Shown one piece after another: positions 19,769-59,763 of a stretch of DNA of 64,000 nucleotides; the stretch's first letter is position 1; the number at the start of each line of letters is the position of its first letter. The stretch is taken from positions 175,792 to 239,791 of the forward strand of contig CAXHJY010001571.1 of NCBI GenBank assembly GCA_964016885.1. Direction: 5' to 3'. The DNA is from Eledone cirrhosa (taxonomy: Eukaryota). The translations under genes were made by a program, and so were the position numbers. The notes beneath the pieces are model-generated. The model ran no database searches. It worked only from the letters and a program-made list of their open reading frames with translations, and was not told where the DNA came from.

Positions 19769-19972
19769 ACAGCGAGGGTGTGGTAAGGTACGAGGTGGAC
19801 CATTACACACGAGGGTAGTCGGTATTTAGGGAGTAGTGTGGGTAATAGGAAAAGAGTCGGGACCCCGACAGCTGAGCTCCGGCCGTTTCGACAGCTAGAT
19901 TCGGAGAGCTGAGTTCGGATCTAGCTGTCGATATGGCCGGAGCTCAGCCGTCGGGGTCCTGACTCTTTTCCT
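19769..19972. mobile_element. Family A palindromic small element in (TA)n
   Basis: Inverted arms AGGAAAAGAGTC..GACCCCGAC..GTTTCGACAGCTAG and CTAGCTGTCG..GTCGGGGTC..GACTCTTTTCCT. The longer arm extends left. Confidence 0.8.
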
Positions 19973-20029
19973 ATATATATATATATATATATATATATAT
20001 ATATATATATATATATATATATATATATA

Positions 20030-20750
20030 TAAATATGTATACGTACATACATATATGTATACTGACGTACAGTAGTATGTATATATATATACATACATGC
20101 ACACACATATATATATATATATATATATGTACGTATAGATCTACCGAACATTTATTATAATGATAGGTTTGTTTGTAAACAAACATCCCGAATTAACCCG
20201 TACAGTGTTTAGCAACCATCGTTGCACTTTTGTTCAACACTGACAAAGGAACGATGTACTAGATTCAAGCTTATTAGCTATCGTCAGCACCGTATACCTT
20301 CCTGCCAGATGATTGAACGTCTGAAAGTATATACTTTCCTTATGCATATTAACGGCTGAGCAGCCTAATTTGCATATCGAGTGAGTTAATCGGCCGGGCG
20401 CACCGAAAACGATAAACGGAAAAAATGAAACGAAATTTCATTTCCCACTCTTAGTACGGCTGTTACTTAAATATAAGTATGTATACGTACATACATATAT
20501 GTATACAGACGTACAGTAGTATGTATATATATATATACATACATGCACACATATGTACGTATGGATTTACCGAACATTTATTATAATGCTCGGTGTGTTT
20601 GTAAACAAACATCCCGAATTAAGCCGTACGGTGCACCCGGCCGCCGATTAACTCAGTCGATATGCAAATTAGGCTGCTCAGCCGTTAATATGCATAAGGA
20701 AAGTATATACTTTCAGACGTTCAATCATCTGGCTGGAAGGTATACGGTGT
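20030..20750 (-). mobile_element. Family B hammerhead-bearing element: ~440-bp unit + partial tandem copy + inverted piece
   Basis: The tandem copy restarts near 20470. 20630-20750 is the reverse complement of ~20288-20405. A minimal HHR lies at 20251-20293 (GAAA mutated to GAAT). Confidence 0.8.
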
Positions 20751-21529
20751 CGCGTCGAAACGGCTTGAGCTCTGCCGTCGGGGTCATACTTTTTCTTATA
20801 TATATATATTTATAAAAATAACAGATTAAAGTTTAAGCAAAGAATCGATGCTTTCACCCTTAACGGGATCTATGGTTCTTATAAACTTGATATATATTTA
20901 TCCTTATCGAGCCCTCTTTGGGTTTTAGTCTTCAAATTTCTTATTATTACTATATATATATATATATATATATATATATATATATATATATATATATATA
21001 TATATATATATATATATATTTATATGTATATATACATATATACACATATTTATATACATATATACACCCACAGACATATATAAAGATGCATCAATCTGTC
21101 AGAGAATTGTAAAAGATAGAATTTAGAGCAAATATAAATTACTATAATGTAATGTAGACTAACCGAATTAAAGACAACTCCAGGCACTTACATTGGAGTA
21201 AAAATAAATTATACCGCTAAAATATGTTTATTTTTGAATATTTATGTAATGTTGACACTTTATTCTATATGCCTCTAGCTGTAATTAGTAATTCAGATTG
21301 ACAACAGTACATTACATTATATATATATATATATATATATATATATATATATATATATATATATATATATATATATGTATATATATATATATATATTTGT
21401 ATGTATATATATGTATGTTTGTATGTATATATATGTATATATATATGTATATATATAAATATATGTATACATATGTATATATATGTGTATATATATATAT
21501 AAATATATATATATATATATATATTTATT

Positions 21530-21703
21530 TTTATTTTATAGAAGGAGCTTCTACAGGACTAGTACTGTTTCATTCAAATTTCATCTGAATGAAACAGTAC
21601 TAGTCCTGTAGAAGCTCCTTCTATAAAATAAAAAAAATTTACTCTGCCATGTATTGAGTACCTTACTTACTGTGGTTATCCCCGACTCAACCCGGGACCT
21701 ACG
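21530..21703 (+). mobile_element. Family C palindromic small element (half-hammerhead) in (TA)n
   Basis: AGAAGGAGCTTCTACAGGACTAGTACTGTTTCATTCA and its reverse complement TGAATGAAACAGTACTAGTCCTGTAGAAGCTCCTTCT. Homologous to 51066-51250. Confidence 0.8.
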
Positions 21704-22649
21704 TATATATATATATATATATATATATATATGGATGTATATATATATATATACACACATATATATATATATATATATATATATAAATATGTATACATAT
21801 ATATTTTTGTATATAAGTATATATGTACACACATACATATATATATATACACACATATATATATATACATATATATATATATATATATATATATATATAT
21901 ATATATATATAGTTATGTAATAAACAACATAAGGCAATTATTCCATTTACCAGTGGTTTCTTAAAAGCAAAAAATTTTGCTTTCAATCATCAGAATGAAA
22001 GAGTCCTGGTCATCCATATATATATATATCATATATATATATATAAATCCTGGTCATCCATATATATACATATATCATATATATATCATCCATATATATA
22101 TATATATATATATATATATATATATATATATATATATATATATATATATATATATATATAAATATGGATGTATACATGTATGTGTGTTTGTGTGTATGTG
22201 TATACAATATACGTATATATCCAATTTGATTGTGTTTGTTCGTCAAAGAAGAGAAAGCACACACATAAATGAAGAACTCAACACAATAGTAATCTAGTAG
22301 AGTATAATATGCTTTATGTATTTGGTTCTGACAACGGAATCGATTTTCTCTCCTGCAAAGAACTGATTATATTTCTGTGGATAAAGAAACGTTGTTAAAA
22401 ATGGCAGAATTATTTGTAATGAGGGCCTTGAGTTAATCTGTTAGCACGAGTTATTTATCAATACTTTGTCCTACAAAATAAGCAAGCCAGGGTTTCTAGA
22501 AAGGGCTTGTTTCGGTCACGATTGTCACTGTGTTTTGCACGATATTTTGTAGAAAACCAGCAGCACTTGATGAAATATGAGCCTTCTCCACGACACTTCA
22601 AGGGAAACTACGATAGATTATAGTACCAGCATCGTAACAACTCATTTTT

Positions 22650-22755
22650 ATTTCAACTGAGTGGACAATGTAAAATAAAGTAAATTACTTAAGGGCAAAA
22701 CGTTCTACTCTGTTCCAGAATCAAACTAACGATCGTTGGCCCAACACTCTAGTCA
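22650..22755 (-). mobile_element. Highly degenerate CORE-like SINE fragment
   Basis: Reverse complement loosely resembles 5829-5945 (CCCTTAAGTAA..ACTTTATTTTACATTGTCCACTCAG). Confidence 0.35.
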
Positions 22756-57992: not shown

Positions 57993-58262
57993 ATAAGTAA
58001 ATAAAATTAAATAAAATAAGATAAATAAATACATACACAAGCATATAAACACACACTAGTCACCCAGCAGACACAACACTATACACACTAGTCACACATC
58101 ACACATAACACTATACACACACGCAAACGCATGCGCAAAGAAGACAAAATAAAATAAGATAAACAAACAAGCAAATAAATAAATAAATATATAGACAGAC
58201 TGAACAAAAAAAAAATGTCGTAGACATACAACACAACAGGAGGAACAATGAATATAACACCA

Positions 58263-58290
58263 CTGACGATGTTGCAGATGTGCAACGAAA
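58263..58290 (+). ncRNA. Candidate hammerhead core in the PLE 3' region (mirror at ~54330-54358)
   Basis: CTGACGA-T-GTTGCA gatg TGCAAC-GAAA. Stems I and III could not be assigned convincingly. Confidence 0.5.
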
Positions 58291-59327
58291 GATTTATGTA
58301 AATTATGTAAACTATATATATGTGTTTGTGTCTATATTGTATCTGTATTATTTTTGACCGCCGGTCAGTCAATGGCAACATTGAGGACCGAGTAAGTTAG
58401 ATCGCAGATATATATATATAAAAGACAGCGAGAAGCGAAAACCAACCAAACAGTGAGTGTGTTCTGTTATTAATTCTGGCAATATTACGCAAATATGACC
58501 CTCCCCAAATATAACAATATATATATATATATATATATATATATATATATATATATATATATATATATATATATATATATATATATATATATACATATAT
58601 ATACTTATATATGTATTTATATGTCATATATATATATGTATATATATATGTATATATATATATATCTACACACATATATATATATGTGTGTGTGTATTTG
58701 TATATATGTAATTTCTTATATATATACATATATATTTATATATATATATACATATACATATATACATATATATATACATATATATATATATATATATATA
58801 TATATATATATATATATATATATATATATATAAATATATATATAAAAATATATATATATGTATAATATACATATATGTTTTCTGTATATATGTATTTTTT
58901 TTAAACACACACACACACATATATTGTAGACAATATGTCTGCTATGTCTGGTGTCTTATTTGATCTGGCTGTGTCACGCTTTCATACACCTTACGTATTA
59001 TTTCATATTACAATTTATCCATCAAGCTATCTACTATTTTTTACCTACTTATTTTAAATCATATACTCCTATATATCGTTTTACAAACCTCCAGACACAC
59101 ACATGCATGAATATATATTTATTTGTATCTATGTGTGTATATATATATGTGTGTGTGTGTGTGTGTGATATATATATATATGTATGTGTATATATATATA
59201 CACATATAATACAAATATATATATATATACACACATAATACACACACACACACACACACACACACACACACACACACACACACACACACACACACACACA
59301 TATATATATATATATATATAGATATAC

Positions 59328-59522
59328 GAAAAGAGTCATAACCCCGACGACAGAGCTCAAGCCGTTTCGACAGCTATTTCTGGATTGAAATAGCTGTCGA
59401 AACGGCTTGAGCTCTGCAGTCGGAGTTCTGAATCTTTTCCTATTTCCCACTCTACTACCCAAAGTATTGAGTACACTGGTGCATTATGGCCCATCTGGTT
59501 CCTTACCACAATTCCTTCGTTA
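59328..59522. mobile_element. Family A palindromic small element
   Basis: CAGAGCTCAAGCCGTTTCGACAGCTATTTC tggatt GAAATAGCTGTCGAAACGGCTTGAGCTCTG. Confidence 0.82.
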
Positions 59523-59568
59523 TGTATATATATATATATATATATATATATATATACACACATGTATA

Positions 59569-59763
59569 TAACGAAGGAGTTGTGGTAAGGAAGCAGATGG
59601 AACATAACGCACCAGAGTACTCAATACTTAGGGTAGAAGAGTTTGTAATAGGAGAAAGTATGACCCCGAAGGCACAGCTCAAGCCGTTCCACGGTTATTT
59701 TTGGTTAGTCCAGAAAGGCGTCGAAACGGCTTGAGGTCTGCCGTCGGGGTCATACTTTCTCCT
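59569..59763. mobile_element. Family A palindromic small element, opposite orientation
   Basis: Same arms. The long arm starts TAACGAAGGAGTTGTGGTAAGG. Confidence 0.8.

Follow-up and report, generated by a model that had tools for sequence, protein, structure and literature searches.

Palindromic leader fragments of predicted Hydra-type Penelope-like elements in Eledone cirrhosa and their probable origin by two-ended priming

Introduction

A stretch of 64,000 nucleotides from Eledone cirrhosa (assembly GCA_964016885.1, contig CAXHJY010001571.1, positions 175,792 to 239,791), the whole of which is referred to here as the window, contains short palindromic elements of two families, A and C, that are mirrored within or next to a hammerhead ribozyme motif, which raises the question of how a sequence comes to be folded back at such a place. 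According to the original prediction, these are retro-insertions of the Penelope-like element (PLE) type, in which nascent cDNA snapped back at a ribozyme hairpin and primed the second strand. All nine listed copies were found as head-to-head mirrors with unequal arms and (TA)n ends; those of family A carry GAAAC-GGC..GCC-GTC and lack CTGANGA, and one copy of family C indeed keeps CTGATGA at its centre, at 51196. The PLE-type origin was borne out, since the arms match the leaders of elements encoding a reverse transcriptase (RT) and an endonuclease. The snap-back did not hold as a general mechanism.

The copies of both families are probably made when the two ends of a cut in (TA)n prime reverse transcription at two sites in the leader and both cDNAs run off the 5′ end of the RNA before being joined. 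In such a scheme the element protein would cut the (TA)n target, each cut end would prime a cDNA at one of the two leader sites, and on capped RNA both cDNAs would run out after 60-140 nt; their 3′ ends would then be joined, the junction showing a small overlap, extra bases or a templated insert, the overlap being supplied by the complementarity of stem III in a minority such as 51287-51420. The capped start, the separate priming of each arm on RNA and the microhomology-type end joining, sometimes via stem III, are inferred from the sequences. The resulting mini-palindromes lose the TATA-like element and probably give rise to no further copies.

Parent elements and genome-wide abundance

Searches over the 3.0-Gb assembly of the source genome gave 14,729 matches for a family A pattern (31 letters, four of them N) and 32,361 for a family C pattern, the latter a count in which both arms of a single insertion may each appear; neither reversed control gave a match, so the families are not a product of chance. 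A pattern for an older subfamily of A matched 1,995 times. The element and its TA-ended short arms also occur in contigs from four sequencing runs, from which the starts are not readable.

Five of 30 family A copies taken in genome order extend upstream, with no mirror, into a common sequence that carries the missing half of the ribozyme, TACCCC-YTGANAA-G. The parent unit of family A (L121) has 3,118 bp and an open frame of 786 amino acids, that of family C (L286) 5,966 bp and 758 amino acids, and the two proteins are 49% identical. Both frames contain, by eye, the YRDD and IY..YIG motifs of an RT with a C-terminal GIY-YIG-type endonuclease, together with RWR, DKT, CNC-X5-C (a CxCX5C linker), CxxC and CxH. 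RWR is one change away from the RWK motif of the Hydra clade, the other motifs of which were matched; the hammerhead in the pseudo-long terminal repeat (pLTR) and the insertion into (TA)n are likewise as in that clade, its protein motifs, (TA)n targets and pLTR hammerhead being taken from passages of PMC8557442. Families A and C are, on this evidence, the predicted leaders of two coding Hydra-type PLEs, upstream of likely start codons, an assignment made by motif comparison with published clade features. A Pfam search with the family A parent protein gave no match.

A coding PLE inside the window (54100-58520) was considered as the parent and rejected, its match being weak and confined to the linker/endonuclease region. 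Four matches spaced 3,542-3,543 bp apart (L306-L309, C1:91476614-91487266) form a tandem array of full A units, and a similar spacing occurs at C1:437200344-437210962. A further Hydra-type PLE at L289:2129-4590 has an open frame of 821 amino acids, 36% identical to the A protein.

Outer ends and the point where the arms stop

Every one of the 131 family A insertions shorter than 420 bp is bounded by a short end at unit position ~106 and a tailed end at ~188, and the same holds for all 19 family C pairs and, among the kilobase-scale insertions, for 16 of 17 pairs with a scored mirror, as well as for L138 and L140; the exceptions are L135, with two short ends, and L137, with no pair. The tails measure ~68-82 nt, and folding beyond the ends gave small hairpins after both long ends and other folds after the short ones. 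Both families thus show the trait of insertions of endonuclease-bearing (EN+) PLEs, an inverted 5′-truncated copy with a tail at one end only. The paired ends resemble what is known in vitro of PAc, a Poseidon element of Anolis, for which two internal RT start sites near the start of the open reading frame (ORF) bound the tail, and whose protein, a predicted dimer, works on uncleaved RNA and both cleaves and extends the two strands (PMC11167929). PAc belongs to another clade than the parents of A and C, and the main text of that study is silent on head-to-head inversions and 5′ run-off.

Inwards, the arms pile up at one point. A sample of 370 distinct A arms, drawn from loci that had been selected by different routes, contains 66 that pass through the whole ribozyme; of the other 304, 228 have their end at unit positions 46-56, 52 at 57-68, 15 at 2-43 and nine at 44-45; position 50 alone is the end of 49 of 256 arms. 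Counted per insertion, 106 of 128 resolved copies have the end of the further-reaching arm at 40-56, and in 30 loci of the older A subfamily the arms start at ~47-55 (by eye, with a pattern that fixed position 55 onward). Eighteen of 74 C arms run through, and 28 of the other 56 terminate on one of the four bases with which stem I opens. Mapped on the secondary structure, the stop of family A lies in loop II and that of family C ahead of the core, where stem I begins, so that no helix is followed; the proposed position of the A centres in the loop of stem II stood, on the 3′ side of loop II, while a common helix position failed for family C, in which some centres are found in stem II and others around CUGAUGA and the beginning of stem I.

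Both stops read YYANWYY, 25-31 nt behind TAAATAC (27-31 nt in 14 of 16 C parents). YYANWYY is the initiator consensus. A G precedes position 50 in 31 of 125 A arms and in none of 43 parents. The same point recurs in mis-jumped copies (L299/L300, L301, L339, L393-L395), where the join falls at positions 46-51 in family A, with internal positions 281, 407 and 1007 joined to positions 50-51 in L395, L394 and L393, or at G+AGATTC in family C, to which L339 joins internal sequence; these mis-jumps suggest a physical RNA end at the stop point. The stop is likely to be the 5′ end, that is, the capped transcription start of the element RNA. A pLTR start site and TATA/initiator (Inr) motifs are known for other PLEs from passages of PMC3846280, PMC2377424 and PMC8557442, the first of which gives TATA plus Inr for a rotifer pLTR.

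It might instead be supposed that two primings do occur and that the stop reflects stalling of the RT at an RNA structure or protein, or an RNA processing site, for example a splice acceptor. A pyrimidine-rich stretch, often with YAG, precedes both stops, the A stop falls within loop II on the 3′ strand of a small hairpin, and a 5′ intron is situated close to the Penelope promoter (PMC2377424). Nevertheless this is unlikely: about 31 of 100 listed C parents (counted by eye) have CG, not AG, at the stop, as expected of a start site but not of a splice acceptor, no common upstream exon was seen by eye in the join inserts, no structure is predicted upstream of the C stop, arms starting at the cleavage site (91-95) occur in only two of 128 insertions, and the long copies cross the stop without pile-up.

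Two further observations concern the arm starts. A single mis-jump, L319 (C1:176137442), links internal sequence to unit position ~93, at which a cleavage product is predicted to end. In L031, L069, L146 and L157 long runs of T stand directly before the arm start, as if untemplated A's had been added to the cDNA end.

Arm lengths and the joining of the arms

If a single cDNA had snapped back, the short arm would have to lie inside the tailed arm. Among 127 resolved short A insertions (the 131 minus four dropped), 58 have the tailed arm as the further one, 44 the tail-less arm, and 25 show equal reach; for 46 A copies met incidentally in flanks the figures are 19, 19 and eight, for the 19 family C pairs ten, seven and two, and in the kilobase-scale parents L121-L134 either arm is the further one in seven cases. 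In five A copies (L023, L097, L154, L164, L177) the arms have no sequence in common. The frequent further reach of the tail-less arm and these five non-overlapping pairs are incompatible with snap-back of one cDNA and fit two primings.

The two arms nevertheless belong together. They carry the same subfamily 9-mer in 75 of 105 pairs, against 11.7 by shuffling (maximum 25), and mutations in the core are arm-specific (113 versus five), so that the two arms date from the insertion itself and go back to a single RNA or to sister RNAs. As the centres vary from copy to copy, every insertion made its own join. Independent strand transfer for each arm was set aside, mixed insertions being rare. In L083:1380-1610 the arms carry 9-mers of different subfamilies (three differences), which suggests two RNAs in one insertion.

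Snap-back of one cDNA at a ribozyme hairpin, with priming of the second arm, would account for the common subfamily of both arms, for the A centres in loop II and for the five of 128 joins that lie in stem III with an overlap of 6-14 nt; self-priming has been proposed for PLE junction palindromes in passages of PMC3846280, and such junctions occur with R2 proteins, often after full-length cDNA, in passages of PMC11371274. The arm geometry, however, contradicts it in 44 of 127 A copies, in seven of 19 C pairs, in seven of 14 long parents and in the five copies without overlap; it also gives no reason for the fixed short end, and the C centres map to no loop. As the general mechanism it is refuted, and we hold it to be very improbable for these families, while it could apply to a minority such as 51287-51420. 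The use of helix self-complementarity, as predicted for the centre at ~51392, is real and confined to a few joins, the five in stem III.

A number of points weigh against run-off from two primings, or against its generality. The 25 pairs of equal reach are indistinguishable from snap-back, and gapped alignment stretches some arm extents (58:44 against 61:47 in two measurements). When both arms were required to hold the GAAAC anchor, the tailed arm was the further in 36 copies, the tail-less in 13 and neither in 12 (61 copies), a skew that arises in part because the selecting pattern lay in the tailed arm, and given which some share of copies may be made by snap-back. The A arm ends are scattered across ~10 nt and peak a second time at 46; the signature of a cap is faint, since many of the 31 extra Gs could derive from the opposite arm, as could the GG in eight of 23 C mini-palindromes; and the start is a putative one, taken from TATA-like and initiator-like motifs. 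The samples, moreover, came mostly from contig C1 and from pattern-selected loci.

The centres of palindromes are prone to deletion. The unequal centres might accordingly be post-insertion deletions in perfect palindromes, and the joins do show overlaps of 1-2 nt and templated inserts; no pile-up at one parent position would then be expected, yet the pile-up is present, also in non-mirrored joins and mis-jumps, and losses of 100-2,700 nt would have to fall about equally on either arm in parents whose arms are 92-100% alike, so we give this explanation hardly any credit. A miniature inverted-repeat transposable element (MITE) that targets TA and is moved by a DNA transposase would also be short, numerous, palindromic and flanked by TA, and it can be dismissed with near certainty, as the original prediction had held for MITEs with terminal inverted repeats, since the outer ends differ and are not inverted repeats, the centres vary per copy and the elements consist of leader sequence from upstream of an RT-endonuclease ORF. 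The flanks are (TA)n, in which a target-site duplication cannot be read.

Copies of families A and C in the window

Two window copies belong to the older A subfamily. In the first (6191..6348, + strand) the tailed arm runs from the A at 6223 (unit position 50), and 6191-~6218, as read from the sequence, is a decayed remnant of the short arm; in the second (19769..19971) the tailed arm lies on the minus strand and the short arm on the plus strand from 19912 (unit position 50), preceded by a G, with a few extra bases at the join. A lone short arm (20753..20795, +) runs from unit position 64 to the short end. Four A mini-palindromes follow, with no strand assigned to the whole: 46220..46414, with the tailed arm on the minus strand to position 48 (46359) and the short arm on the plus strand from 52 (46360); 51287..51420, the join of which lies inside stem III/loop III (51384-51403) and is made through the self-complementarity of stem III, as in a minority class; 59327..59522, with the short arm on the minus strand to position 52 (59384) and the tailed arm on the plus strand from 56 (59387); and 59570..59762, with the tailed arm on the minus strand to position 53 and the short arm on the plus strand from 48-50 (59705).

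In family C, the copy at 21529..21703 is joined in stem II, with the short arm on the minus and the tailed arm on the plus strand, while that at 51066..51252 has the tailed arm on the minus strand and a short arm on the plus strand that contains CTGATGA and reaches further, 21 against 17 nt upstream of GAAA. The tail-less arm is thus the further one in three window copies, at 51066, 59327 and 59570. A scan of the window with Rfam, of which 150 of 243 rows were listed, gave among those rows no match at a family's gathering score and no hammerhead row, with sub-threshold hairpin matches, some of them miRNA-like.

Hammerhead ribozymes of the parents

The rarer copies with a complete hammerhead that were expected do exist, in another form than predicted. 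For family A the upstream motif was to be GACCCC-CTGANGA; canonical ACCCC-CTGANGAG has only 13 genome matches, against 5,597 for TACCCC-YTGANAAG. A search for CTGANGA 8-38 nt before the A core gave 43 matches, of which the 30 that were read are junction by-products or unrelated neighbours without a GACCCC stem; its gap did not extend far enough to include the true parent. Folded without constraints, the A parent forms a hammerhead three-way junction (-23.2 kcal/mol) with the core UUGANAA. Among 36 distinct complete copies, 25 have U3-A8, seven a C3-A8 mismatch and four C3-G8, these four having come from a search targeted at C3-G8.

The stems assumed for family C were mistaken: compensatory changes identify stem I as AGATTC/GAATCT, with a GUA site, and in place of the predicted CTACAG-CTGANGA, AGATTC-, AGCTTC- or GGCTTC-CTGATGA was found. 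The ribozyme has C3-G8, covariation in stem I (AGATTC/GAATCT 12, AGCTTC/GAAGCT ten and GGCTTC/GAAGCC seven of 56) and a U10.1-U11.1 mismatch. By predicted structure both parents qualify as type I hammerheads, with three helices, a conserved core and a 3-8 pair. An A subfamily with the C3-A8 mismatch (L094, L107, L108 and others) still has many copies, and an intact 3-8 pair may therefore not be needed to spread.

The A mini-palindromes lack the 5′ half of the ribozyme because the inferred start lies in loop II, and CUGANGA is absent also because the parent core reads UUGANAA. The two A half-ribozymes, which would lie at the 5′ and 3′ ends of the transcript, co-fold to a full hammerhead with a predicted -23.0 kcal/mol. 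Hammerhead cores with U3-A8 are known from PLEs of Schistosoma, and the Cercyon elements, as described in passages of PMC4209133, resemble family A in U3-A8, a long helix II and a short helix I, in an unpaired base where stem II begins and in ribozyme pairs on opposite strands; by comparison with the same passages, family A differs in a stable helix III, a predicted monomer fold and the C3-A8 of some subfamilies (7/36).

Long copies and a possible second template

Thirty A loci read into the ORF, 18 of them seamlessly through the putative start, five beginning at it and seven cut or rearranged elsewhere in the leader; the five that begin at the start are mis-jumped mini-palindromes. In 57 insertions with one arm past the start, tallied by eye with one mixed case (L118), the partner also passes it in 27, comes from the body in five and stops well short in two, two are complex, 21 have no visible partner, and a clean partner stopping at the start was not seen. 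That the long copies pass the start and their partners nearly always do so too suggests a second template without a 5′ end at that point.

It is conceivable, and we put it forward tentatively, that there are two RNA forms, capped uncleaved RNA that gives run-off mini-palindromes, and hammerhead-processed circles or multimers that give the long copies and promoter renewal; in family A the start site would split the ribozyme, which would then have to form by the meeting of both transcript ends. The long copies are explained equally well by read-through RNA of tandem arrays, of which L306-L309 is an example, or by the two cDNAs jumping in a coupled manner.

Other features of the window

The coding PLE at 54100-58520 belongs to another clade and is itself a fold-back, with 2,018-nt arms that are 99% alike and both 3′ ends in (TA)n; by its CX4CxxC linker it is Neptune- or Nematis-like, as far as the motifs in passages of PMC8557442 go, and it has hammerheads at 54357-54330 (-) and 58263-58290 (+). 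Retrozyme-like 467-bp tandem hammerhead units in an inverted arrangement occupy 48410-51018. Hammerhead-like cores of other families occur at 18912-18871, 41888-41864, 51514-51537, 61257-61221, 62693-62729, 63019-62995 and 63234-63258, several of them within fold-backs (61162-62795, 62845-63408), and unrelated sequence is folded back at 20288-20749, 46953-47084, 51612-52393, 52502-53367 and 60720-62255. Tandem copies of a LINE (long interspersed nuclear element) with endonuclease and RT frames, one RT frame having 987 amino acids, lie at ~7800-17800 and 23894-29295 and are, we presume, L1/Tx1-like.

Relation to known systems and significance

The two-ended priming proposed here has relatives outside the PLEs. 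In the twin priming that Ostertag and Kazazian are said to have reported for L1 in 2001, both target ends prime cDNA and the inversion is joined by microhomology; there the two cDNAs reportedly copy different parts of the RNA, whereas here the same stretch would be copied from two fixed starts. Retroviral minus-strand strong-stop DNA likewise begins at an internal site close to the 5′ end and extends, as a short cDNA, as far as the cap, with the differences that here neither a tRNA primer nor an integrase would be involved and the product would be inserted directly.

Among PLEs, the closest are the C-terminal EN+ elements of the Hydra clade, which, in the passages of PMC8557442 concerned, agree with the parents in protein motifs, (TA)n and pLTR hammerhead, and also in partial tandems, the inverted 5′-truncated copy and a tail at one end; their tails measure 30-40 nt against ~68-82 here, where the parent units have 3.1-6 kb. 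The main-text passages of that account mention no dominant leader-only palindromes ending at one point, and its supplement may list such families. Head-to-head inverted junctions are common to the PLE self-priming model and to R2 snap-back as presented in parts of PMC3846280 and PMC11371274, from which the present arm geometry differs in needing two primings on sense RNA. Non-LTR retrozymes (in parts of bioRxiv 10.64898/2026.07.22.740005 and PMC7761336) are, like the mini-palindromes, short, linked to hammerheads and related to PLEs; unlike them, the mini-palindromes are not tandem and have no upstream TATA-like element, and those of family A lack half the ribozyme. Instead of the tandem units with complete hammerheads that define a retrozyme, they are single leader fragments, with rare two-unit mis-jumps only.

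PLE inversions, tails, (TA)n targets, U3-A8 cores and the self-priming proposal are already published, to judge from sections of PMC8557442, PMC11167929, PMC3846280 and PMC4209133. The present analysis adds the parentage of A and C, a test of arm geometry applied to leader fragments, the interpretation of the stop as run-off and the proposal of two classes of template; a literature search that covered few subscription papers and no supplements found no run-off, strand-transfer or twin-priming account of PLEs. The inverted and tandem copying of PLEs, the renewal of the pLTR and the role of the hammerhead are called open questions in passages of PMC8557442, PMC2377424 and PMC7761336. As the miRNA-like Rfam matches illustrate, such repeats are prone to be misannotated as MITEs or miRNA hairpins. 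The copies amount to an extensive natural record in which self-priming and two-ended priming can be told apart, and for elements whose frames are open the proposed reading predicts a transcription start, two sites at which the RT starts and two classes of template; the existence of two RNA forms, if true, would give the hammerheads of PLEs a role and explain the renewal of the pLTR.

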